Positions 646-45,212 of a stretch of DNA of 45,212 nt are shown here, in pieces; position 1 is the first letter of the stretch, and each line of letters begins with the position of its first letter. The stretch spans positions 1 to 45,212 of the forward strand of contig JBGUUU010000031.1 in NCBI GenBank assembly GCA_045133775.1. The letters are read 5' to 3'. The notes below the pieces were generated by a model that did not search any database, was not told where the DNA came from, and saw nothing but the letters and a program-made list of their open reading frames with translations. The translations under genes were made by a program, and so were the position numbers. The stretch comes from Christensenellaceae bacterium. Lineage in GTDB: Bacteria; Bacillota; Clostridia; Christensenellales; Borkfalkiaceae.

Positions 646-987
646 ATGAGTAACGCGTATTTAAAATTAAATGATAAAACAGGAGCAATGGTAGAAAACT
701 ACGTGCCAGACGGCGAGCTACTTGATGAGCTTACAGGTATATTTTCGGTTTTTGCAGATAAGACAAGGCTTAGAATTTTGTCATCTTTAACAATAACCGA
801 TATGTGTGTTAGCGATATATCTTCGGTTTTAAAAATAAATCAAACCACCGTATCACATCAACTAAGGCTACTAAGAAACCTAGGGGCAGTAAACTGTTAT
901 AGGTGTGGTAAAATCGTTTACTATTCGTTAAAAGACGAACTTCTTGGAGAAATATTATTAAAGGGTATAGAATTTTTAAGCAAATAA
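646..987 (+). CDS. ArsR/SmtB-family metalloregulatory transcriptional repressor
   Basis: Winged-HTH signature: ...FADKTRLRILSSLTITDMCVSDISSVLKINQTTVSHQLRLLRNLGAV...YYSL. Confidence 0.85.
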   Translation: MSNAYLKLNDKTGAMVENYVPDGELLDELTGIFSVFADKTRLRILSSLTITDMCVSDISSVLKINQTTVSHQLRLLRNLGAVNCYRCGKIVYYSLKDELLGEILLKGIEFLSK

Positions 988-1106
988 AGGCTTATATGCT
1001 GCGGTATGCGTCGTTACTGCAAATTGTCCTTGACTGGTATGACCACAGAGGTCTATCCCATCCAATGCCAATTTGCGAGCCTAGCCTACCTTGCATCTAA
1101 GCCTTT
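986..1106 (+). repeat. Structured 121-nt interspersed repeat, copy A (MITE-like: TIR AAGGCTTATATGC...GCATCTAAGCCTT, TA flanks)
   Basis: Shares termini, a central bulged hairpin (ATAGACC-N5-GGTCAT) and overall length with the copies at 8058, 12665 and 17603. Its first A completes the arsR TAA stop (985-987). Confidence 0.7.
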
Positions 1107-1142
1107 ATTGTATATAATGATAGGTATTCATTGTAACAGAGC

Positions 1143-4441: not shown

Positions 4442-5106
4442 TTAAAATTAAAAATTTAACTAAGCGCTATGGCGAAAAGGTTGTTTACGACAATTTTAGT
4501 ATTGATATCGAAAAAAATAAAACCCTTGTAATTTTAGGCGAGAGTGGGTCTGGTAAAACGACGCTTTTAAACGTTTTGGCAAACTTAACCGATTATGAAG
4601 GTCAAATCGAAGGTTTAGACGGCTCGGTTGCAATGGTTTTCCAAAAGGATTATTTAGTGCCAAATCTTACCGTAGAGCAAAATTTAAAGCTTGTTTGCAA
4701 AGATAAAGACGTCTTAACTGTTTTGCGAGCGGTAGAAATGGAAGATTGCGCAAAGCAATATCCAAAGAGCTTATCTGCGGGAATGTCGAGAAGAATAGCT
4801 ATTGTAAGGGCATTACTGTATAGCTCTAACCTTATTGTTATGGATGAGCCTACGAACTCATTGGACGTGGGGCTAAAAAATAAAATTTATAACATACTTA
4901 AACAACTAAAAAAAGAAATGGAAAAAACTATAATCGTTGTAACACACGATATAGATGAAGCACTTTCTCTTGCAGATAGGGTTATAGTTGTTAAAGGTGG
5001 CGGTGTTGAATACGAGTATTCGTTCAAAAGTTCTATCTACGATAGAGATATAACTAGCGAAGAATGTAATTTAGTAAGAAAAGAATTGCTCGATAGACTT
5101 CTTTAA
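4432..5106 (+). CDS. ABC transporter ATP-binding protein
   Basis: Walker A GESGSGKTT, signature LSAGMSRR, Walker B LIVMDEP. Overlaps the permease stop. Confidence 0.85.
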   Translation: MAMIKIKNLTKRYGEKVVYDNFSIDIEKNKTLVILGESGSGKTTLLNVLANLTDYEGQIEGLDGSVAMVFQKDYLVPNLTVEQNLKLVCKDKDVLTVLRAVEMEDCAKQYPKSLSAGMSRRIAIVRALLYSSNLIVMDEPTNSLDVGLKNKIYNILKQLKKEMEKTIIVVTHDIDEALSLADRVIVVKGGGVEYEYSFKSSIYDRDITSEECNLVRKELLDRLL

Positions 5107-5219
5107 TTTGTTATAAAAAGGTTAAAACTGGTCAAAAATATAGGCGAGTGAAACTTAAAGCTAAAAAAATACATATATTATAGCGAAGGGTTTTGCCGAA
5201 TATATTGGGAGATTGGTTT

Positions 5220-5573
5220 ATGATAAAGCGTGGAGAATTGTATTACGCAGACCTAAGCCCCGTAGTCGGTAGTGAACAAGGTGGCGTGAGACCTGTTCTT
5301 GTTGTTCAAAACGACGTTGGCAACAGATATAGCCCAACGGTTATAGCTGCTGCTATAACTAGCCAAATAAACAAGGCAAAACTACCCACACACATTGAAC
5401 TTAGTGCTGTAGATTACGGGCTTAGTAAAGATTCTGTCGTATTATTAGAGCAGATTAGAACTTTAGATAAAAAAAGGCTAAAAGAAAGAATTGGTGAATT
5501 GCCAACGTCGACAATGGAACGAGTGAACACAGCTCTTTTGATTAGCCTTGGCTTTTTAGAGAAAAACGCATAA
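5220..5573 (+). CDS. mazF: MazF/PemK/EndoA-type mRNA interferase toxin
   Basis: I place the start at ATG 5220 (SD GGGAGA). The product [49 protein letters not shown]...KLPTHIEL is near-canonical EndoA/MazF. Confidence 0.85.
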
Positions 5574-7904: not shown

Positions 7905-7936
7905 GGCTATGTCACAAAGTATGACTGATTAAATTT

Positions 7937-8043
7937 AAAGGGTTAGATACGAGCAAGACGGGATTTTTGCGAGATTTTTGCAAGGGAATTACCTTGTTGG
8001 TCAGCAACGTGACGTTGCATCCGTGTATTTAGCCGAACTCCTT
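7937..8043 (-). repeat. Structured interspersed repeat, copy B1 (degenerate)
   Basis: 5' AAAGGGTTAGATACGAGCAAGACG and central ACCTTGTTGGTCA match the family. The distal end is diverged and carries a 5-nt insertion. Confidence 0.55.
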
Positions 8044-8057
8044 ACAAAGTGAGTTTT

Positions 8058-8178
8058 AAAGGATTAGATACGAGCTAGCCAAGGCTCGTGAGCTTGAAAA
8101 GACTTGGTAGACCTTGTTGGTCACCAAGGTTTTGAAAGCGAAACAGTTAACGCAGGCTAGCGAAGTAGATAAGAATTT
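8058..8178 (-). repeat. Structured 121-nt interspersed repeat, copy B2
   Basis: AAAGGATTAGATACGAGC-tagccaag-GCTCGT..., TTGGTAGACC-TTGTT-GGTCACCAA, ...GTAGATAAGAATTT. TA flanks. Abuts the U-tract of the riboswitch terminator. Confidence 0.7.
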
Positions 8179-8295
8179 AAAAAGGGCGCACTCGTTCCGT
8201 AAAACAGTGCGCCCAGACGGTCGGCTAATAGGATTTCTCCTTTTGGTTTTCCGTTTCACCGTGTTAATCACGCAATCCGTCAGTCGCAGAAAACC
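8179..8295 (-). promoter_or_regulatory. ZTP (pfl-motif) riboswitch with intrinsic terminator expression platform
   Basis: Minus strand: GGUUUUC-UGCGACUGACGGAUUG-CGUG-auuaa-CACG-GUGAAAC-GGAAAACC, linker, then AGCCGACCGUCUGGGCGCA. This matches the conserved GACUGGCG ... CCGCCUGGGC blocks of the pfl motif. The pseudoknot pair covaries (GACGG with CCGUC). Terminator GGGCGCACU-N13-AGUGCGCCC-UUUUU overlaps the 3' aptamer strand. Confidence 0.7.
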
Positions 8296-8309
8296 ATTAA
8301 GTTGATATA

Positions 8310-8339
8310 ATAATACCATATTTTTAAAAACGTTGTCAA
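8310..8339 (-). promoter_or_regulatory. Promoter driving the ZTP riboswitch
   Basis: Minus strand: TTGACA (8339-8334), 18-nt spacer, extended -10 TGgTATTAT (8318-8310). Confidence 0.55.
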
Positions 8340-8401
8340 GCGTGAAACGACATATTTTTTCATTTTTATTATAAAATAATAAGCCTAGTATTTTATCATT
8401 G

Positions 8402-10187: not shown

Positions 10188-10230
10188 TTTTATACTCCTA
10201 ATTTGTTTTAAAAACTTAATAGAAACCTTT

Positions 10231-10275
10231 AAAAAGGTTTAGAGATGCCGTATTGCGTGGTTTATAAGCCTTTTA
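10231..10275 (-). repeat. Internally deleted (~45 nt) derivative of the structured repeat, copy E
   Basis: Minus strand: TAAAAGGCTTATAAACCACGCAATACGGCATCTCTAAACCTTTTTA. It keeps both terminal arms only and starts in the pyrF TAA stop. Confidence 0.5.
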
Positions 10276-11882: not shown

Positions 11883-12619
11883 ATAATTTCCTCCTTACAA
11901 AGAACAGGGCCGTCTTTACATATTCTCTTGTTGCCGTAAAGCGTTTTGCAAGAACAACCCATGCACGCGCCAAAGCCACAACCCATTCTCTCTTCAAAGC
12001 TGAATTGTCCACTAGTAGCGCTTGCATTATAAACTGCTTTAAGCATTGGTTCTGGCCCACAAGTAAAGAAATAACTATAGTCTACGCCTTGCATAGCGTT
12101 AGTTACAAAACCTTTTACCCCATACGAGCCGTCAACAGTTGTAACGGTAACGTTTGCGCCGAGTTTTTTAAACTCTTCTTCGTAAAAAACTTCATCTTTA
12201 GTATTAAAACCGAGTATAACCGAAACGGATTTACCCCCGTCTATAAGTCGTTTAGCGCATAAATACATAGGTGGAACACCTACGCCACCACCAATTAAAA
12301 GTGGCTTATCTCCACTTTGCGAAAGGTCGTAACCATTGCCAAGCTCGGTTAGAACGTCGAGCTTTTGTCCAACCTGCATTTGGGACATTTTTTCTGTGCC
12401 TTTACCAACGACTTTGTAAACGAGAGTGAGTTCATCTCCCACAATGTCGCATACGGAGATTGGACGGCGAAGATATAATCCATCGATTAAGATATTAACG
12501 AACTGACCGCACTTAATACCTGAAACGTCGCCTTTTAATTTCATTTCAAAAACGGTTTCGGTAAGACGGCGAGTTGAAGAAATTTCAAAAATAATTTGTT
12601 TCATTTTTATCCTTTGCAA
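11870..12619 (-). CDS. pyrK: Dihydroorotate dehydrogenase B, electron-transfer (FAD/2Fe-2S) subunit
   Basis: 249 aa; RRPISV flavin motif and C-terminal CGFGACMGC...C cluster. Confidence 0.9.
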   Translation of the reverse strand: MQRIKMKQIIFEISSTRRLTETVFEMKLKGDVSGIKCGQFVNILIDGLYLRRPISVCDIVGDELTLVYKVVGKGTEKMSQMQVGQKLDVLTELGNGYDLSQSGDKPLLIGGGVGVPPMYLCAKRLIDGGKSVSVILGFNTKDEVFYEEEFKKLGANVTVTTVDGSYGVKGFVTNAMQGVDYSYFFTCGPEPMLKAVYNASATSGQFSFEERMGCGFGACMGCSCKTLYGNKRICKDGPVLCKEEIIWEK

Positions 12620-12664
12620 CTAATCGTTGCATTCGTGTTGTTTACTCTTATCAAGTAAGTATTT

Positions 12665-12785
12665 AAAGGGTTAGATGCGAGCAAAAGAAGGCTCGCTTTG
12701 TGGCACAAGACACAATAGACCTTTGTGGTCATTGGGGTTTGGGGTACAAAGCAGAAACGCACTTTTGCGAAGTATATAAGCCTTT
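12665..12785 (-). repeat. Structured 121-nt interspersed repeat, copy C, inside the pyr operon between carB and pyrK
   Basis: AAAGGGTTAGATGC-GAGC-aaaagaag-GCTCGC-TTTGT...CAATAGACC-TTTGT-GGTCATTG...ACAAAGC...CGCA-cttt-TGCG...GTATATAAGCCTTT. TA flanks. Its terminal A completes the carB TAA stop (12786-12784). Confidence 0.75.
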
Positions 12786-15700
12786 AAGCGTCGATAGTAG
12801 AAATACAAAGCGTAGTTTCTTCTAATACGTCGAGAAGAACTTTTACAGTATCGAGCGACGTAAAGATTGTTACGTTAGACTCCGTTGCATATTTTCTAAT
12901 TTGGTATCCGTCTGATGCTGACGAAGGTGAACCTACACTGCTTGTGTTGATAACATACGCAATGTGACCTTGACGGATAGAATCAAAGATTTCTTCACTT
13001 TCTTCAATCTTTTTAAGAACGTGTGTTCTTATGCCGTTTTCTTTAAGGAATTTAGCCGTGCCTGCAGTAGCTTCAATATTAAAACCAAGGTTGTAGAAAC
13101 GACGGATAAGTGGAAGGGCTTCTTCTTTATCTTTATCTGCAATAGTTGCAAATACAGTTCCATAATTTTGAAGGTGCATGCCTGATGCTTGTAATGCTTT
13201 ATAAAGCGCACGGTTAAGTTTATCATCATAACCGATAGCTTCACCAGTTGACTTCATTTCAGGAGAAAGGTATGCGTCTAAGCCCCTAATCTTATTGAAT
13301 GAGAATACAGGAACTTTTACGTACCATCTTTGCTTTTCTTCTGGATATATATCGAAAATACCTTGTTCTTTTAATGTTTTACCCATAATAACTTCGGTAG
13401 CGATATCTGCTAAGCTATAACCCGTTGCTTTAGAAAGGAAAGGAACAGTTCTTGAAGAACGTGGGTTTACTTCGATAATATAAACTTTTTCATCTTTATC
13501 TACGATAAATTGAATATTGTAAAGACCTTTAATGCCTATGCCTACGCCAAGTTTTTTAGCATACTGCAAGATAATGCCTTTTACCTTGTTTGAAATACTG
13601 AACGTTGGGTATACGCTTATTGAGTCGCCCGAGTGAATACCCGTTCTTTCAACAAGCTCCATAATACCTGGAACAAATACATCTCTACCATCGCAAATTG
13701 CGTCGATTTCAACTTCTTTACCGATAATATATTTATCAACAAGTACTGGCTTATCTTCATCAATTTCAACGGCAGTTTTAAGATAATGTCTAAGTTGGTC
13801 TTCGTTTGAAACGATTTGCATTGCTCTACCACCTAAAACAAAGCTAGGTCTTACAAGAACAGGGTAACCAATTTTTGCAGCGGCAGCAACACCGTCTTCA
13901 ATCTTAGTAACTGCTCTACCTTCTGGCTGTGGAATGCCAAGGTCTTTTAAGAGTTTTTCAAATCTGTCACGGTTTTCTGCCTTGTCGATAGCATCGCAGT
14001 CCGTTCCAATAATTTCAACGCCCCTTCTCATAAGTGGCTCTGCTAAGTTAATTGCAGTTTGACCACCGAGAGATGCGATAACGCCTTGTGGGTTTTCAAA
14101 CTCAACGATGTTCATAACGTCTTCTGGAGTTAATGGCTCAAAGTAGAGTTTATCTGCAGTAGTATAGTCTGTAGAAACAGTTTCTGGGTTATTATTAATA
14201 ATGATTGCTTCATAGCCAGAGTTTTTGATAGTTTGAACTGCGTGAACTGTAGAATAGTCGAATTCTACGCCTTGACCAATTCTAATAGGACCTGCGCCTA
14301 ACACGACAGCCTTTTGCTTGTCGGTAAGAATAGATGCGTTTTCGCCTGTATATGAAGAATAGAAATAAGGAATATAAGCGCCACTATATAAGGTATCAAC
14401 CATCTTGAAGATAGGCTTAATATTGTTTTCTCTTCTTAAGTTGTAAACGTCAATTTCCTTCACACCCCAAAGTTTTGCGATATATGGATCAGAAAAACCA
14501 AGCTTTTTAGCATCAACAAGAGTTTTTAAATCGCCCTTGTTTGCTTTTAAGGTGTTTTCCATATCTACAACATTCTTAAAACTCTCTAAGAAAAGTTCTG
14601 TAATCTTAGTTACGTCGTGAATTTTAGCAATACTTTCGCCACGGCGTAAAAGTTCGGTAACGGCAAAGATATTATCCGACTTAAACTCCGTTAAATATTC
14701 GTAAAGCTCCTGTGTTGTATAGCTATCAAATTTAGCAAGATATAAATGGTTTACACCAATTTCGAGTGAACGAACAGACTTAAGTAAACACTCTTCAAGG
14801 TTAGAACCAATACCCATAACTTCACCCGTAGCCTTCATTTGAGTGCCGAGTTGGTTTGATGCAGACGTAAACTTATCAAATGGGAATCTTGGGAATTTTG
14901 CAACTATGTAATCAAGCCTTGGCTCGTGATCAGCTGTAGTGCCTGCAACTTGAATTTCATCTAAAGTCATACCTACTGCAATTTTAGCTGTAACTCTTGC
15001 AATAGGATATCCACTTGCCTTTGATGCAAGCGCTGAAGAACGAGAAACTCTTGGGTTTACTTCGATAAGGTAATATTCGCTAGTAGTTGGGTTTAATGCA
15101 AATTGAACGTTGCAACCACCTTCGATTTTGAGCTCTCTAATAATTTTGATAGCGCTATCGTTGAGCATCTTTAAATCCTTATCGCTGAGTGAAAGGATAG
15201 GAGCAACAACAACGGAGTCGCCTGTGTGAACGCCAACAGGGTCGATATTTTCCATACCACAAATCGTGATTGCCTTATCCGAGCTATCACGCATAACTTC
15301 AAACTCAATTTCCTTATAACCCTTTACGCTCTTTTCGATAAGAACTTGGTGAACAGGAGAAAGCTTAAACGCGTTAAGACCGATTTCGATAAGCTCTTTT
15401 TCGTTATAAGCAAATCCGCCGCCAGTTCCACCTAAGGTAAATGCAGGACGAAGAACGACAGGGTAACCGATTCTCTCTGCTGCAGCTTTAGCTTCTTCTA
15501 AGCTATAAGTGATTTCAGATGGAATTGTAGGCTCGCCGATTGATTGACAGAGCTCTTTGAACATTTCTCTATCTTCTGCTCTTTCGATACTTTCGCTACT
15601 TGTTCCTAAAAGTTCAACTCTACACTCTTTTAAAACACCCTTCTTTTCAAGTTGCATTGCAAGGTTAAGACCTGTTTGTCCACCGATACCGGGAACGATA

Positions 15701-17398: not shown

Positions 17399-17433
17399 TA
17401 AAAAAAGCCTTTGCGATAGACGCGCAAAGGCTT
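17399..17433 (-). terminator. Terminator ending the PRT-like gene plus repeat transcript
   Basis: Minus strand: AAGCCTTTGCG-cgtctat-CGCAAAGGCTT followed by TTTTTTT. Confidence 0.7.
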
Positions 17434-17477
17434 ATATAATATCAAATTTTGCTTTAAAAAAAATTTAGGTTAGGCTT

Positions 17478-17600
17478 AAAGGCTTAGATGCGAGTAAGAC
17501 GAGGCGTTTGCTTTTTAGAGGCAGGGAGCAACCTCTTTGGTCGCAGGAATGTTTATAAAAGGCAAAGTATTGCTTAGTGTTACACCGTGCTTTATTTTAT
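17478..17600 (-). repeat. Structured interspersed repeat, copy D1 (diverged distal end)
   Basis: AAAGGCTTAGATGCGAGTAAGACGAGG... and GCAACC-TCTTT-GGTCGC match the family. In tandem with D2. Confidence 0.55.
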
Positions 17601-17602
17601 TT

Positions 17603-17723
17603 AAAGGCTTAGATGCGAACAAAAGAAGGCTCGCTTTAAGGGATAAGACACAATAGACCTTGTTGGTCATTGGGGTTTAGACCTTAAAGCAGTAACACAC
17701 TTTTGTGAAGCATATAAGACTTT
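17603..17723 (-). repeat. Structured 121-nt interspersed repeat, copy D2
   Basis: Near-identical to copy C except for paired (compensatory) differences. TA flanks. Its terminal A completes the TAA stop (17724-17722) of the PRT-like gene. Confidence 0.75.
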
Positions 17724-18363
17724 AAAGTTTAGAATAGCCGTGGCTATTTACAAGCGCATCAATCTTTCTGCCTTGTTTACACATTGGACATTGGTGCGCC
17801 GGATAACTTGCATAGCCCTGCAAGTCCGTAGGGTCGAAAACTGAATGAACTTCATAACCAGAACACTCGTCAACGGTTGCGAAAATTGCGCTTACACCGG
17901 CAACGCTACCACCGTAATATTTTACAGCTTCTATCGCTGCGTTTGCAGTATAACCCGTTGTAACCGATGCAGACAAAATAAGCACGTTTTTGCCTTTTAC
18001 CGTTGGAATTATGTTATCTCTTAACAAAAGTTGGCTACCAGACGTATGCTCAGGAGTTATTACGTAAACGGTTTTATGCTCGTTCATGCTCATAAATCCA
18101 CCTTTTGTAAGCTCATCTGCAAGACAAGTGCCTACAACCTGCATACCGTCAAGACACAAAATAGTGTCGATTATAGTGCTTGTTCTATAAAATGAAACCA
18201 AAGTTGACGCGATTGCTCTTGCTTCAGAAAGCCTTGTTTTTTGCATTGTAACGTCAATATAGTAGTTTATATGGCTATGGCTCGTTGCAAAGTGACCTTC
18301 TGCTACGCGAAGGGTAAGATTTGAATTTTTTACTGCTACTTTTCTAACTTTTTCTACAGGCAT
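17722..18363 (-). CDS. Phosphoribosyltransferase-fold protein with a degenerate PRPP-binding loop (function unknown)
   Basis: 213 aa. PRT-type loop VLILSASVTTGYT, in which the usual acidic pair (DD/ED) is replaced by SA. C-terminal CPMC motif. Confidence 0.55.
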   Translation of the reverse strand: MPVEKVRKVAVKNSNLTLRVAEGHFATSHSHINYYIDVTMQKTRLSEARAIASTLVSFYRTSTIIDTILCLDGMQVVGTCLADELTKGGFMSMNEHKTVYVITPEHTSGSQLLLRDNIIPTVKGKNVLILSASVTTGYTANAAIEAVKYYGGSVAGVSAIFATVDECSGYEVHSVFDPTDLQGYASYPAHQCPMCKQGRKIDALVNSHGYSKL

Positions 18364-18454
18364 AAAAATACCCCTTTTTCTTTATGTTATCATATATGGA
18401 ATATTCTTGTCAATATCGTTTGCAAAATTTTGCTACTTTTATACCTTTTATGGT

Positions 18455-18485
18455 AAAAGCGACGCTTAAGTTAGCGTCGCTTTTT
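18455..18485. terminator. Bidirectional terminator after the ABC exporter genes
   Basis: GCGACGCT-taagtt-AGCGTCGC flanked by AAAA and TTTTT. Confidence 0.65.
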
Positions 18486-18486
18486 G

Positions 18487-20226
18487 CTACTTTTCGAATT
18501 GACTGTTATAAAGGGTATGATAAAATCCTTTCTTTTCTAAAAGCTCTTCGTGCGAGCCTTGCTCTATCACGTTACCGTCTTTCATAACGAGTATTTTATC
18601 TGCATTTTTAATAGTTGATAATCTGTGCGCTACGATAAATGAAGTTTTACCTTTCGTGAGCTCGTTGAACGCGCTTTGAATTTTCATTTCCGTCCTCGTG
18701 TCGATAGAAGACGTTGCTTCATCTAAAATAAGCATAGGTGGAAGGCAAAGCATAACCCTTGCAATACACAAAAGTTGTTTCTGCCCTTGCGACAAGCAGT
18801 TATCATCAATTACCGTATCGTAACCAAACGGCAATCTCTTTATAAAACTATGCGCGTGTGAACGCTTTGACGCGGTTATAATTTCTTCATCAGTTGCATC
18901 TTGCTTGCCAATGCAAATATTTTCTTTAACTGTTGCTTTTCTTATCCAAGTATCTTGTAACACCATGCCGTATTGAGCCCTAAGCTCTCGCCTAGAAATC
19001 GACGTTATATCTTGTCCGTCTACGCAAATTTTGCCCCTATCTATTTCATAAAACCGCATCAATAGGTTGATTAACGTTGTTTTTCCGCAACCAGTATGGC
19101 CAACAATGGCGATCTTTTGCCCTGCGCTAACGTCAAGGTTAAAACTGCTTATTAAAGGCTTATCTTTAGAATATGAAAAGTCTACGCCATCAGCGTTTAC
19201 GTTGCCGTCTATCGGCAAATTAAAGTGACTGTCTTTAGCATCAGTTTCTTCGTGCACTTCTAAAATATCAAACATTCTTTGGGCGCAAGCCGTCGCGCCG
19301 GAAAGCTCTGTCATAACCGAAGATATTTCATTAAACGGCTTTGTGTATCTATTAGCGTAGCTAAGTAGCGCCAAAATTGAGCCTGCCGTAACGGCAAACA
19401 CACCACTACCACCCTTTAGCGCAAGCAACGCGCCTGTAAGCGCAACTGAAGAATATACTAAAGAGTTTACAAATCTCGTAACTGGGTTTGTTAGCGAAGA
19501 GAAAAATACTGCTTTAAAAGACGTCTTTTTATACTCGTCGTTGACCTTTTCAAAATCCTTAACAAACTCATCTTCTTGCGCATACGCTTTTACGGTAGAT
19601 AAATTGCCTAACGTTTCTTCTATCATTGCAGTTTGTCTACCGGATATTTGCGACTGACCTTTGAAAAACTTATACGTTTTGCCTGTAATAAATTTTGCAA
19701 CGAAAAGCGAAATTGGGGTAATTACAACTACTACACCTGCAATGAGTGGGTTTAGCATAACCATAAATATAAGCGTGCCAACAATTGTTAAAAGCCCCGT
19801 GAAAAGCTTTGAAAAACCTAAGAGCAAGCCTTCTGCTATCTTATCTGCGTCGCCTATTTCTACGCTTAAAATATCGCCGACAGGTCGCTTATCAATATAA
19901 GAAAGTGGCACTCTTTGTAATTTGTTAAAGGTGTCTTTTCTAAGCCTTTTTACAACTCCGTTTGATATAATAGTGCATAAAATTTCGGTAAACCATTGCA
20001 TTAAACCTGCAATTAACGCGCATATAGACGCAGTTATGCCTATTTTAAGCACTCCGTCTAAGTCGACGTTGCCTTTAGATATAATCAAATCGGTAGCATT
20101 GCCGAAAAGTATAGGAAGATAAAGCTGAAACACAACGTAAATGCCTGCAGTTATTATAGAAAGAATAAAAGCAAAGCGATATTTACCAACGTAAGCCCAA
20201 AGTTTTTTTAACGCGCCCTTTTTCAT
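18487..20226 (-). CDS. ABC exporter fused permease/ATPase, consensus-site half of a heterodimer
   Basis: 579 aa. Six-TM N-terminal domain; Walker A GHTGCGKTT, signature LSQGQKQ, Walker B LILDEATS (catalytic Glu present). Confidence 0.85.
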   Translation of the reverse strand: MKKGALKKLWAYVGKYRFAFILSIITAGIYVVFQLYLPILFGNATDLIISKGNVDLDGVLKIGITASICALIAGLMQWFTEILCTIISNGVVKRLRKDTFNKLQRVPLSYIDKRPVGDILSVEIGDADKIAEGLLLGFSKLFTGLLTIVGTLIFMVMLNPLIAGVVVVITPISLFVAKFITGKTYKFFKGQSQISGRQTAMIEETLGNLSTVKAYAQEDEFVKDFEKVNDEYKKTSFKAVFFSSLTNPVTRFVNSLVYSSVALTGALLALKGGSGVFAVTAGSILALLSYANRYTKPFNEISSVMTELSGATACAQRMFDILEVHEETDAKDSHFNLPIDGNVNADGVDFSYSKDKPLISSFNLDVSAGQKIAIVGHTGCGKTTLINLLMRFYEIDRGKICVDGQDITSISRRELRAQYGMVLQDTWIRKATVKENICIGKQDATDEEIITASKRSHAHSFIKRLPFGYDTVIDDNCLSQGQKQLLCIARVMLCLPPMLILDEATSSIDTRTEMKIQSAFNELTKGKTSFIVAHRLSTIKNADKILVMKDGNVIEQGSHEELLEKKGFYHTLYNSQFEK

Positions 20227-36901: not shown

Positions 36902-37732
36902 TTAACAAATTTTCTCTGCAAAGGCGCGAGATTGTAAAACGTTTATAACGTCGTGGGGCTCTAAAATGCGTTTTAGCACGCCATTATCACTATAAACGTA
37001 AATACGATATAGATAGCCACCATCAATCTTTTTGTAAAGATTTTTAACTGTAAAGTCTTCGCTAACGGCGAGAGACTTTATTTTTTTACCATTTTTTAAA
37101 CTGCCAATAGATATGCTTTGATAAAGCCTTATAAACCTATTTTCTTTGCCTTTATCAATTACCCCAAGTAGCATAAATATTGCAAAAAGCAGTAGCGACG
37201 GATTGCCACCTACAAATAGCGACAACACGTAAAGTGCTAAAAAACCTAAAAAGAATATTACCCCAATAATCTTGCAAATAAGCACGGCTGTTTTTCTTGA
37301 CAGAAAGGTAGATAGCGAGCAAAGAAGAATTCTTCCACCATCTAAAGGAAAAACTGGCAAAAGGTTAATTATGCAAAGGGCAAGCCCCGCAGTTACTGCA
37401 AGCTCTGTATAAGGATAAGTTTCGGGGAAAACCCACCAAACGGCTACTAGCGCAATGCTTATGCTTAAATTTAGTAGTGGCCCTGCAAGGCTTACCTTTA
37501 TTTCATCTACGTAGCTCATATTAGAAATTTCACCCGTAACTATTGCCCCAAACGGCATTAAAGTTACGTTTACGAGCTTATAGCCACACTTTTGCGCCGA
37601 AATGGAGTGCCCTATTTCGTGTATTAGCGCGCACAAAGTATAAACTAAAAAAGAATATACCTTGCCGGTAGCGACAAAGTATATTCCTACGATAAAAAAC
37701 AAAGGATGAACTTTAAACCTTAGCTTTCCCAT
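36902..37732 (-). CDS. spoIVFB: M50 site-2 metalloprotease, SpoIVFB-like
   Basis: HEIGH at ALIHEIGHS and NLLPVFPLDGGR motifs; 276 aa; preceded by an M23-like gene, as in the spoIVF operon. Confidence 0.6.
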   Translation of the reverse strand: MGKLRFKVHPLFFIVGIYFVATGKVYSFLVYTLCALIHEIGHSISAQKCGYKLVNVTLMPFGAIVTGEISNMSYVDEIKVSLAGPLLNLSISIALVAVWWVFPETYPYTELAVTAGLALCIINLLPVFPLDGGRILLCSLSTFLSRKTAVLICKIIGVIFFLGFLALYVLSLFVGGNPSLLLFAIFMLLGVIDKGKENRFIRLYQSISIGSLKNGKKIKSLAVSEDFTVKNLYKKIDGGYLYRIYVYSDNGVLKRILEPHDVINVLQSRAFAEKIC

Positions 37733-40310: not shown

Positions 40311-41324
40311 ATGTTAAAAATTACTTCTCCAAACGGCACAGTTTGCCTTTATACGAAATCTGCGCAAGACTATCTACAAAATGGTGGCGACGTTGCAAAA
40401 TACTTTAACGAGCAACTTATAGAGTCTAACCAAGCTATACCAGTTTTTATTAGCTGGGAAACAGACAAGCCTGCGCACTCGTTTACAATTAAATATAGCG
40501 AAAACAAGTCTTTTGAAAACTGCCAAACGGTAGTTGCAGTAGGCAATGCAAACAGCGTAGAAGTTTATAATCTTTTAAAAGCTACTACCTACTACGTAGA
40601 AGTTTCTGCTCTTTTCACAGACGGCACTATTGAAAGCGCAACTCACACCTTTTCAACTATGGAAAAAGGACCACGCCCACTTAAAATCGACGGCATTTTT
40701 AATACTCGTGATATTGGTGGCTATCTTCTCGCTAACGGAAAACGCACTAAGCAAAATAAAATCTTCCGTGGGGGCGCGCTTTCGCCTTGCAAAGATAGCG
40801 AAACTATTGGGCTTACTGGTAGTGGTAGAAAATATATGAGCGAAGTTTTAGGCATTAAGACGGAAATCGACTTTAGGGGGCGTGAAGAAGCCCAAAAGGG
40901 AGATGATAGCGAAATTCCTAACGCAAACCTTTATTACACAATCTTGAACGGATACGACGCTATAATAAACCACGCAGAGAGTTGCCGTGAACTGTTTTCT
41001 ATATTAGCAAATGAAAAAAATTATCCTGTCTATCTTCATTGCACAGGTGGAGCAGATAGAACGGGAACCGTTTGCTACCTTATAAACGCCTTGCTTGGCG
41101 TAGATGAGCAAACCCTTATCGAAGACTATGAATTTACAACCTTTTCTTACTATACGATAAGAAGCACTAAAAGCGAATGGACTGAGCCACTTTGGAAAAA
41201 GTTTATGAATATCATCAACTCGCAAGAAGGAAATACGCTTTCAGAAAAAGTTGAAAACCTACTCCTTTCAATGGGTGTAGATATAGAGAATATAAATTCA
41301 GTTAGAAAAATAATGATTGATTAA
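40311..41324 (+). CDS. Fn3-like domain plus CX5R protein-tyrosine-phosphatase-like enzyme (Y_phosphatase3-type)
   Basis: Active-site loop HCTGGADRTGTV, preceded by NTRDIGGY. The N-terminal ~115 aa are a beta-sandwich-like domain. Paralogous to 43393-45212. Confidence 0.7.
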   Translation: MLKITSPNGTVCLYTKSAQDYLQNGGDVAKYFNEQLIESNQAIPVFISWETDKPAHSFTIKYSENKSFENCQTVVAVGNANSVEVYNLLKATTYYVEVSALFTDGTIESATHTFSTMEKGPRPLKIDGIFNTRDIGGYLLANGKRTKQNKIFRGGALSPCKDSETIGLTGSGRKYMSEVLGIKTEIDFRGREEAQKGDDSEIPNANLYYTILNGYDAIINHAESCRELFSILANEKNYPVYLHCTGGADRTGTVCYLINALLGVDEQTLIEDYEFTTFSYYTIRSTKSEWTEPLWKKFMNIINSQEGNTLSEKVENLLLSMGVDIENINSVRKIMID

Positions 41325-43392: not shown

Positions 43393-45212
43393 TTATTCAC
43401 AAATTGTCAAAGACGTAACAGCATCCGTACGAATCCAAAACGTCATTTTCATACTAGCTTCAGGTATCTCATTTGCTACACGCGATTGAAATACATACGT
43501 ATGCTCATAAATGCTATTGCCACTTTCCGCTTTAATCGTTAAAACAGGTTTATTATCAATGATTTTTACAGTCATATATAGCGTAGCCCCACCATCAAAC
43601 ATGGTATTAGGCAAGTGCATACCCGTATTTCGACCAACTTCTTTCATATTACCGCTTGCATCTATCGTATAAGGGCGCATTTCCCCGCCACGACATTCAA
43701 ACCCATAACTACCGATAAATACTCTCAATCCACCTTCCGTATTTGCAACAGTCGTTGTTTGCATTTTTACGAGAGCTGTTTTACCGTAACCAATTGTTCC
43801 CGTGCTTACAAGCGGTGTTCTATTAGCTGTAAGTTTAATTTCCCCTTGCTCGTTAAACGCAAAAATCTGGTTCATTGTTACTATATTTAATTCTTTCCAA
43901 TCTAACGTAAATTCCGTTTCCGTTCCGTCATTAAAGACAACCTTACACAAAGTATCCCCATCAGGTAAAGATGGAAGCTGTGCCGGTGTAACGGTAATTT
44001 TACCGTCAGAATAAGTAAAGGCTGTTTCAACGTTACCAATATATAATTTGCTAGGTATCTTCTTACCAACTAAAGAAAGAACTAAATCGCCATCCACGTT
44101 CTTTATATAAGAAGCAGGAGCATATATTGTTGCTTTTGTAGGCTCACCAAAAAATATTGCTTTAATATTATAAATTTCCGTTTCGGTTACACCAATAGAA
44201 AGCAAATAATTCTCTGTTTTTTCCTGCAATGAATTTCCCGGATACGTCTTCAATGTTGTAAGGAATGGTTGGAAATAATTATTTGCCCAGTCCCCAGAAT
44301 GCGCATTACGAATATTATAAGTTGAAAAACTTGTAAATTCATATCCTTGAATACACTCTAATTTCGACACACCAAGAAGCGCATGCAATAAAAACGTCAC
44401 CGTTCCTGTTCTATCTGCCCCACCTGTACAATGATAATACAATGGGTAATTGTTTTCGTCTGCTAAATAAGAGAATATTTTACGATAGCCTTCTTTAGAA
44501 GTAAATGCAGCCGAATAACCACCTACAGTGATATAAGTAAGCGTTGCACCTGGGATTACACTACCCCCTTCAACACCCGATTCTTCAGCATTACGGAAAT
44601 CAAGCTCTGCCTTAATTCCCATTACTTCGCTCATATATAGTTTACCATCATCGGTAAGATTACTTGTATATATATCTTTAGGTGGGGGAGTCAATGATCC
44701 GCCTCGATACGCTATACCTTGCACGATTGTTTTACCAAATGAAGTCTCATACCCACCTAAATCTCTTACGTTATGTATAGCATCAATCTTCATAACACGT
44801 GGTCCAAGCGACGTCGTTTGAAATTCGCTTTCTGCTATATCAAGCGTTTCGCCTTCAGAATCTAATGCTTCCACACTTACGTAATAAGTTGTTCCCCTAT
44901 ACAAGTTATATAAATCAACCGAACGTTTTGAAGAGCTAACTTCAACCGAAATAGCATCAGAAAAATCCACCTTAGTTGCATAGCTTACAAGAAACTTTTT
45001 TACATTTTCCCCTTCATATTCCCACTTCACTTTAATAGGCGCATAAGCATTATCCATTAGCTTAAAATAATCAGCAACGTCCGCGCCTTCTCCTGCTTGC
45101 AAATACTCTTTAGCTGCATCTGCATAAGGAAAAACTTCTCCTACTGGAGCAGTAATCATAAGAGTATATTCAATAGGTGATTCACTCTCGCTCTCGCTTT
45201 CACTCTCACTTT
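43393..45212 (-). CDS. Fn3-like plus CX5R phosphatase-like protein with a ~260-aa extra C-terminal beta-rich region; 5' end outside the window
   Basis: HCTGGADRTGTV and NVRDLGGY motifs, paralogous to 40311-41324. The reading frame stays open upstream of the track's Met to the window edge through a (SE)n linker (SESESESESESPIEYTL-MITAP...). Confidence 0.7.
   Translation of the reverse strand, partial: SESESESESESPIEYTLMITAPVGEVFPYADAAKEYLQAGEGADVADYFKLMDNAYAPIKVKWEYEGENVKKFLVSYATKVDFSDAISVEVSSSKRSVDLYNLYRGTTYYVSVEALDSEGETLDIAESEFQTTSLGPRVMKIDAIHNVRDLGGYETSFGKTIVQGIAYRGGSLTPPPKDIYTSNLTDDGKLYMSEVMGIKAELDFRNAEESGVEGGSVIPGATLTYITVGGYSAAFTSKEGYRKIFSYLADENNYPLYYHCTGGADRTGTVTFLLHALLGVSKLECIQGYEFTSFSTYNIRNAHSGDWANNYFQPFLTTLKTYPGNSLQEKTENYLLSIGVTETEIYNIKAIFFGEPTKATIYAPASYIKNVDGDLVLSLVGKKIPSKLYIGNVETAFTYSDGKITVTPAQLPSLPDGDTLCKVVFNDGTETEFTLDWKELNIVTMNQIFAFNEQGEIKLTANRTPLVSTGTIGYGKTALVKMQTTTVANTEGGLRVFIGSYGFECRGGEMRPYTIDASGNMKEVGRNTGMHLPNTMFDGGATLYMTVKIIDNKPVLTIKAESGNSIYEHTYVFQSRVANEIPEASMKMTFWIRTDAVTSLTICE

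Follow-up and report, generated by a model that had tools for sequence, protein, structure and literature searches.

A lineage-restricted family of mosaic palindromic repeats with covarying stems in uncultured gut Clostridia

Introduction

A stretch of 45,212 nt from a Christensenellaceae bacterium (contig JBGUUU010000031.1, hereafter the window) carries several copies of a sequence of about 121 nt, whose arms stay complementary while their letters change from one copy to another. A sequence-only reading of the window had described it as a new interspersed repeat family with a multi-stem structure, maintained by selection on secondary structure and matching no known RNA class. The question raised by this locus is whether such a repeat is a structured RNA or an element of a different kind, and what governs its position and orientation among the genes.

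Results

Copies of the repeat in the window

A pattern joining the 5' terminus of the repeat to its apical hairpin, AAAGGNTTAGATRC-N(30-50)-ACCTNNNTGGTC, matched copies A, B1, B2, C, D1 and D2; in 100 shuffles the expected number was 0.00, compared with these six. A repeat finder independently paired copy C with D2, plus the shared termini. Pattern search and a covariance model trained on 150 copies from other genomes placed all seven copies of the sequence-only reading where it had put them, every one confined to the first 18 kb of the window. On the opposite strand the four full copies reached only 22-24 bits with this model, so the element has a clear polarity. We call element strand the one on which the repeat had originally been written; this is the strand given below for the units, together with the covariance-model scores.

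984..1108 (-), copy A, full-length unit, 124.2 bits
646-987 (+), arsR-like gene upstream of copy A, whose mRNA reads the reverse complement of the unit
985-987, TAA stop codon of the arsR-like gene, inside the end of copy A
1152-1179, terminator beyond copy A
7905..7934 (+), distal end module of array B, GGCTATGTCACAAAGTATGACTGATTAAAT, also present at array ends in other genomes
7935..8057 (+), copy B1, composite "type II" unit, 17.6 bits (partial match)
7935-8003, 5' half and central hairpin of B1
8004-8018, palindrome GCAACGTGACGTTGC of B1
8019-8055, linker and small hairpin AACTCCTTACAAAGTGAGTT of B1
8056..8180 (+), copy B2, full-length unit that immediately follows the ZTP riboswitch terminator on the - strand, 127.9 bits
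10196..10230 (+), extra inserted sequence adjoining copy E, between this remnant and the pyrE ribosome-binding site
10231..10275 (+), copy E, internally deleted unit with both ends kept, between pyrF and pyrE, 25.4 bits (about 1e-3)
12616..12662 (+), tail module on copy C: hairpin GCAACTAATCGTTGC, linker and hairpin TACTCTTATCAAGTAAGTA
12663..12787 (+), copy C, full-length unit between carB and pyrK, the reference copy of the finding, 134.0 bits
12784-12786, carB stop codon, inside the end of copy C
17433-17405, terminator of gene 17722-18363 (-); array D lies upstream of it
17476..17600 (+), copy D1, unit of a separate subfamily (GAGCAAGACGAGGCGTTTGC...) whose 3' end has decayed, in the position distal to the stop codon, 43.6 bits
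17601..17725 (+), copy D2, full-length unit with the stop codon of gene 17722-18363 (-) in its end, 134.3 bits

Copy E, at whose end the pyrF stop codon lies, is indeed an internally deleted unit, derived from a copy that the orthologous site in locus L086 has at full length. The adjoining insert at 10196..10230 is common to L086 and missing from empty sites, and may be the remnant of a second unit. Copy B1, described earlier as degenerate, is not simply so: it is a recurrent composite form with at least 32 occurrences, made of the 5' half, the central hairpin, the GCAACGTGACGTTGC module and a tail. Copy C and its tail constitute an insert of ~174 nt between carB and pyrK.

Extent and distribution of the family

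The repeat was found at more than 103 loci in a scan of species-representative genomes and, among the matches listed, all loci belonged to seven gut MAGs of uncultured Clostridia/Christensenellaceae, whose hosts are sheep, goat, roe deer and human. The collection of copies with nhmmer yielded 251 matches in 708 kb of element-bearing loci, with 154 distinct full-length copies. Neither nhmmer nor the covariance model detected a copy in sister lineages (795 kb of syntenic DNA, in 80 metagenome loci with the same pyr genes and 75-88% protein identity), and the viral contigs, plasmids and phages searched had no copy either. Rfam gave no match to the repeats at the gathering score or at E-value limits of 1 and 5, in agreement with the earlier failure to assign them to a known RNA class, and no description of the family was found in the literature. 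The claim of a new interspersed repeat family is thus sustained; it is an undescribed, lineage-restricted family of the familiar bacterial kind of "selfish" palindromic repeats, and not a new RNA class.

Fold and covariation

Covariation was studied on an alignment of 150 distinct copies, subfamilies included. RNAalifold predicted 30 pairs, and double compensatory changes were seen in 24 of them. Complementary letters occupied 93.8% of the paired cells against 73.8% after shuffling, cells with double changes numbered 972 versus 309, and the covariation score was 0.531 versus 0.173, a value that 0 of 500 shuffles reached and that fell to 0.06-0.12 in slid registers. The compensatory changes first noticed among the window copies are therefore real, and lie far above those of shuffled columns.

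The structure itself differs from the one proposed. Instead of several stems, every copy folds as one long, interrupted, rod-like hairpin, with RNA folding energies for the full window copies of -42.6 to -49.3 kcal/mol (z-scores -5.7 to -8.1). Besides its 16-bp termini, the ~125-nt unit has three stems of variable sequence, an internal loop that is conserved and an apical hairpin that does not vary. Covariation was upheld for the helix GCTTTGT/ACAAAGC with its variants and for the stem flanking the central hairpin, and helix 3 appears in at least nine complementary versions among the 150 copies (GCAAAAG/CTTTTGC, GCAAGAC/GTATTGC, GGTAGGC/GCATACC, GCACACC/GGTGTGC, GTTAGCC/GGCTAAC and others). 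The supposed second helix, CGCA-cttt-TGCG, is not conserved, and its columns pair with the 5' arm instead; as local hairpins, both this one and GCGAGC/GCTCGC were rejected, as they show no covariation and break wherever the sequence varies. The bulged A, taken at first as invariant, is present in 125 of 150 copies (83%).

The terminal inverted repeat is real and imperfect as described, with a length of 16 bp and not 13-14 bp (TTAAAGGNTTAGATRC / GYATATAAGCCTTTAA). One G-opposite-A mismatch within it is near-invariant (149 of 150 copies), so that the two ends are not equivalent (TTAGAT vs TTATAT). All the subfamilies keep the 16-bp termini, this mismatch, the internal loop AAGGCTC / CAGWAAC and the apex GACC-N5-GGTC. 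The stems vary almost entirely by wholesale Watson-Crick swaps between subfamilies; G-U intermediates account for 2.7% of cells, and one-sided changes are rare outside one column. Such wholesale swaps with few G-U pairs look more like those of a DNA palindrome family than those of a typical structured RNA. The pairing is strongly supported.

Differences between the two strands

The two strands of the repeat do not fold equally. The mean RNA folding energy was -47.2 kcal/mol for the element strand versus -38.7 kcal/mol for the mRNA-sense strand, the former being the more stable in 148 of 154 copies. With DNA parameters, the values for the element and mRNA-sense strands of the four full window copies were -29.1/-16.8, -28.3/-21.0, -20.4/-18.6 and -32.2/-22.5 kcal/mol. 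G-U oppositions outnumber A-C on the element strand (122 vs 47), its mismatches are mostly purine-purine, and one polymorphic terminal pair reads AU in 70 copies, GU in 56, GC in 17 and AC in 5. These data are suggestive that pairing matters on the strand antisense to the mRNA, and no more than suggestive since the events are not phylogenetically independent.

Arrays and mosaic composition

The units were grouped in 127 arrays, 81 of which have two to five units. None of these 81 mixes orientations, all their units being arranged head to tail with spacers of 0-8 nt at the junctions. Near-identical adjacent units indicate tandem duplication. Type II units like B1 carry the 5' half and the apex, after which come the palindrome GCAACGTGACGTTGC, a linker and a small hairpin in direct contact with the following unit. 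Array ends bear one of two end modules, GGCTATGTCACAAAGTATGACTGATTAAAT being present at eight or more of them, and the palindrome GCAACGTGACGTTGC is found in many further contexts, in such a way that units join other hairpin modules into mosaics. From the type II units, the end modules and the unit-plus-tail insert at copy C, the family is a mosaic, as BIME and BOX repeats are.

Another repeat, different from this one (...AAAGATTTT... GCAACGTGACGTTGC ATCC..TAGTTCATATAGCGCACTAAAACTCAAAC...), was observed at L003 1700-2100 and at L063 (SIG399 MAG). As it also uses the 15-nt palindrome GCAACGTGACGTTGC, this is apparently a building block shared by several repeat families of these genomes. Two other sequences of the window recall the termini of the repeat. 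The terminator at 17405-17439, AAGCCTTTGCG...CGCAAAGGCTT followed by ATATAA, resembles them (AAAGGCTTATAT), which could be due to chance or to a terminus-only remnant, and a weak covariance-model match at 37121-37155 (-), with 19.3 bits and E about 0.03 (ATAAAGGCAAAGAAAATAGGTTTATAAGGCTTTAT, inside ORF 36902-37732), represents a chance match or a mini-palindrome of terminus-like form within coding sequence.

Position with respect to genes and transcription

The "CCTTTAA" end of the repeat faces the stop codon of the neighbor in 100 of the 108 arrays that have a called gene beyond that end, the neighboring gene being on the opposite strand. In about 70 of these 100 the stop lies within 10 nt of the end (<=10 nt), and at the modal offset the TAA is inside the unit, which often provides the stop codon of the upstream gene. 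This fixed end joins TAA directly, be it a stop codon or the ...TTTTAA that follows a riboswitch terminator. Arrays flanked by tandem genes are co-oriented with them in 57 of 58 cases. The orientation first written for the repeat is consequently antisense to the mRNAs that carry it, which bear the reverse complement.

In the window, the pyr operon that houses copies C and E runs on the - strand (pyrC, carB, pyrK, pyrD, pyrF, pyrE, pyrB/I), array D lies between the stop codon of a gene and its terminator, copy A between the stop codon of the arsR-like gene and a terminator, and array B is located after the ZTP riboswitch terminator. In five related MAGs, two to five units stand between the ZTP riboswitch and the pur genes; in one MAG the riboswitch has no units after it. 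Units sit, then, within operons, in 3' UTRs and in a riboswitch leader. Being inside operons and between riboswitch and pur genes, they are transcribed within mRNAs and cannot be strong terminators. A reading of the units as terminators was also discarded on the grounds that a terminator scan does not flag them, that they have no U tract and that they lie between co-transcribed genes.

With the majority strand of each locus used to separate replication-linked from gene-linked polarity, almost no arrays were found among tandem genes of the minority strand. The split was 9:6 in convergent contexts, and copy A of the window belongs to the minority strand. These data point only weakly to a polarity linked to genes rather than to replication.

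The ZMP/ZTP riboswitch of the window, at 8180-8340 (-), has an aptamer at 8297-8204 (46.2 bits), its own promoter-like site at 8339-8310, a terminator at ~8215-8180 and no downstream gene. Past it there are only B2 and B1, then a bidirectional terminator and a convergent nadE-like gene. As five MAGs have this riboswitch before the pur operon, the genome of the window seems to have lost or relocated its pur genes while keeping an orphan riboswitch. An 87-aa ORF at 8056-8319 (-) that covers B2 and the riboswitch is almost certainly spurious.

Turnover of copies and search for a mobilizing enzyme

Empty and filled sites were compared between genomes whose syntenic DNA is about 74-89% identical, a divergence too high to fix exact insertion boundaries; filled sites are those of the window, L076, L040, L086 and L034. 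The carB-pyrK site is empty in L003, L083, L091 and L104. At pyrF-pyrE, L040 and L003 have an empty site, L086 and L034 a full one, and the window and L091 remnants. Orthologous sites hold from 0 to 5 units, and at the same site in different species the units often belong to different subfamilies (67-73% identity). Copy A is 96.7% identical to its L031 orthologue, against about 84% for the flanks. Within single genomes, copies 97.6-99.2% identical occur at loci with unrelated flanks (L003/L032; L070/L078; L055/L008/L044). In the genome, the repeat behaves as a mobile or concerted-evolving family of the MITE/REPIN/BOX/ERIC kind, and not as a free-standing RNA gene.

Most copies have TA directly outside AAGG...CCTT at both ends. 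This flanking TA pairs as part of the inverted repeat (UA in 136 copies, AU in 6), variant copies having AA...TT and not a direct repeat. Being self-complementary and covarying within the inverted repeat, it does not allow a target-site duplication to be read unambiguously.

Clustering of ORFs in the 708 kb around the copies revealed no recurrent family adjoining the arrays, and a search in the same DNA for pairs of termini 0.3-4 kb apart gave no IS-sized element. The one such pair of the window, 17425-19949, was rejected as a chance match spanning ordinary genes. Two probes, IS200 TnpA and YafM, had no tblastn match to an IS200/RAYT-like gene in the element-bearing loci or the window, and no recombinase appeared among the 20 window ORFs annotated with Pfam. 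The YafM probe did find RAYT/Y1-like ORFs (E about 1e-7) at L140 5184-5591, L143, L181, L155 and L170, where they lie in the vicinity of the pyr genes of sister lineages without the repeat family.

Other features of the window

A MazF/PemK-like toxin gene is encoded at 5193-5573 (+) (Pfam E = 5.8e-37); the ORF list has no antitoxin immediately upstream, and a small one may be encoded in 5106-5193. An 86-nt inverted repeat (40986-41071 / 44399-44484, 77% complementary) lies inside ORFs 40311-41324 (+) and 43393-45159 (-), and probably corresponds to paralogous gene segments.

Discussion

We consider it probable, though still far from certain, that the repeat is a lineage-restricted, non-autonomous and mobile mosaic palindromic repeat, like pneumococcal BOX, Pseudomonas REPIN and enterobacterial ERIC elements. 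As observed here, its units reside in transcribed untranslated DNA with one fixed end joined to TAA. They amplify in place to give head-to-tail arrays, swap modules with other small hairpin repeats, and come and go at permissive sites that different species have in common. Complementarity would be kept along the whole length by the handling of the element as a folded single strand, by a structure-specific enzyme acting in trans. Such single-strand handling is favored by that whole-length complementarity, by the near-pure Watson-Crick pairing, by the conserved mismatch, bulge and loops, and by the strict polarity with uniform arrays. The element strand would be the likelier substrate, as it folds better under both RNA and DNA parameters, and its handling would resemble HUH/RAYT-type or other hairpin-recognizing systems more than a classical TIR-binding DDE transposase, with a DDE/TA-duplicating mechanism as the less likely possibility. 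The effect on the host may be a by-product, each copy adding a hairpin to an mRNA 3' UTR, an intercistronic spacer or a leader, and perhaps only the orientation with the weaker RNA hairpin is tolerated or produced. Against this reading stands that no mobilizing enzyme was found in the 708 kb around the copies and that the flanks gave no unambiguous target-site duplication. Moreover, the conserved internal loop, apical hairpin and G-A mismatch could equally point to a function for the host and to a host protein that binds RNA or DNA.

Also against it, the near-absolute polarity exceeds that of BOX, RUP and SPRITE and is not explained by a symmetric TIR mechanism. This polarity could derive from a strand- and structure-specific mechanism new to Firmicutes, with insertion of fixed polarity 3' of TAA, or from the recruitment of the repeat as an orientation-specific signal after the stop codon, a proposal that we advance with low confidence. 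In such a mechanism the element strand, folded as ssDNA or cDNA, would be recognized through the G-A mismatch, the bulge, the loop and GACC-N5-GGTC, insertion would take place immediately 3' of a coding-strand TAA, and the gene, not replication, would set the polarity; as a recruited signal, the family would be bound genome-wide by a dedicated protein. A classical MITE, derived from an IS630/Tc1-mariner-like (TA-duplicating) or other DDE element and mobilized in double-stranded form by a transposase recognizing the 16-bp TIRs, would owe its polarity only to selection on tolerated insertions. Terminal inverted repeats and insertion polymorphism between related genomes were both found, the element is small, AT-rich and highly base-paired, TA stands outside AAGG...CCTT in most copies, and insertion into the TA of a TAA would restore the stop codon. 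Either orientation would restore it, however, and yet the polarity is 93-98% with no mixed arrays; in addition, the variable flanking dinucleotide behaves as inverted (AA...TT) rather than as a direct repeat, covariation extends over the whole length and not only over the termini, and neither a parent IS nor a transposase was found in the 708 kb around the copies. We thus regard a classical MITE as unlikely.

A host-functional RNA, whose mRNA hairpin would be selected as a stabilizer against 3'-5' exonucleases, an RNase processing site or a site for a global RNA-binding protein, would have spread by recruitment and not by selfish mobility. The presence of all window copies inside transcription units in one orientation speaks for it, as do the loop and bulge sequences kept while the stems vary freely, the higher identity of copy A than of its flanks to the orthologous region, and the known effects of ERIC and Correia elements on mRNA fate (PMC3049150). 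We nevertheless find it rather improbable: the mRNA strand is the one that folds worse, with C-A and pyrimidine-pyrimidine mismatches where the other has G-U and purine-purine, G-U pairs are rare, sites vary from 0 to 5 copies between related species with interchangeable unit types, no copy is present in 795 kb of sister lineages that have the same operons, and decayed copies are tolerated (E, D1 and the L091 remnant). Independent small or antisense RNA genes, transcribed from the element strand opposite to the flanking genes, would agree with the much better folding of this strand, with an SD-like AAAGG followed by ATG in about half of the copies, and with the promoter-like site at 17411-17440 (+) (TTGCGA-18-TATAAT), created by the 17405-17439 terminator, that faces D1. 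They are very improbable, as the other units show no promoter-like site in or before them and no terminator after them, follow one another head to tail at intervals of 0-8 nt, and do not conserve the ATG (G occupies column 15 in roughly half of them). A small-ORF reading of the same strand (AAAGG-N5-ATG ... TAA) was rejected, with the ATG in only about half of the copies and with unit lengths that vary, so that no reading frame is kept. Finally, integron attC sites share with the repeat the imperfect palindrome of similar size right after ORFs, the better-folding strand antisense to the ORF and the conserved mismatches and bulges; nonetheless, the ends are TTAAAGG/CCTTTAA and not RYYYAAC/GTTRRRY, the neighbors are the syntenic housekeeping pyr and pur operons and not cassettes, and the tandem arrays are gene-less. 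Taken as transcription terminators, the units lack a U tract and stand before genes whose co-transcription is required. Both attC-like sites and terminators can practically be dismissed.

The mobile mosaic repeat that we favor adds a well-defined, richly covarying family from uncultured gut Clostridia to a class known mainly from Proteobacteria and streptococci. It offers a natural data set on how hairpin repeats choose site and strand, and on parasites versus recruited mRNA elements, whose value rests on the near-absolute polarity, the fusion to stop codons, the interchangeable stems and a better-folding strand that is antisense. In practical terms, the family fragments MAG assemblies and creates spurious ORFs (e.g. 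8056-8319), and it is usable as a lineage marker.

Comparison with known repeat families

The closest parallels are with hairpin repeats of other bacteria. REPINs are hairpins with common compensatory changes that form tandem clusters (Bertels and Rainey 2011, PMC3116915). They share with the repeat the hairpin units of ~100 nt with conserved ends and a variable, compensated middle, the tandem clusters, the near-identical copies within a genome and a presumed handling as single-stranded DNA, and a hairpin doublet with compensatory changes is what was found here. In contrast, the halves of the repeat are not two REPs, each with its own palindrome and 5' tetranucleotide: the local hairpins break and lack covariation, there is no GTAG-type motif, and no RAYT was found with the two probes in 708 kb of flanks. 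REPINs are, furthermore, known mainly from Proteobacteria.

The ERIC (IRU) elements of enterobacteria and the Correia elements of Neisseria are, like the repeat, imperfect palindromes (~127 nt or 100-155 nt) in transcribed intergenic DNA. They occur in both orientations and are not known to form head-to-tail arrays with end modules. The repeat differs from them in taxon and sequence. As RNA hairpins, ERIC and Correia have reported orientation-dependent effects on mRNA cleavage or stability (summarized in PMC3049150). Pneumococcal SPRITE elements, akin to Rho-independent terminators and strongly enriched directly downstream of CDS 3' ends (PMC3049150), resemble the repeat in this placement, although they have a terminator-like stem with a U-rich tract, whereas the repeat has no U tract and lies inside operons and leaders. 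A CRISPR array was rejected, the units being of ~125 nt with junctions of 0-8 nt and not short repeats with unique spacers.

The BOX elements of Streptococcus pneumoniae have a modular make-up (boxA-boxB(n)-boxC), and in 36 cases a gene takes its stop codon from a BOX (Croucher et al. 2011, PMC3049150). BOX and the repeat are both mosaics of repeated middle units with distinct end modules, tightly folded, intergenic and co-transcribed, with many copies overlapping the extreme 3' end of a gene, and both are hosted by low-GC Firmicutes. There is no apparent sequence relationship between them, and here each unit is a complete palindrome of ~125 nt with many stem haplotypes. The polarity of BOX, RUP and SPRITE is about 61% (PMC3049150), weaker than the 93-98% of the repeat relative to genes. 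By sequence or defining features, the repeat is not a member of BOX, REPIN, ERIC or Correia, and it is unlike the known families in its near-absolute polarity, its fusion to stop codons, its many complementary stems and a better-folding strand that is antisense to the mRNA.
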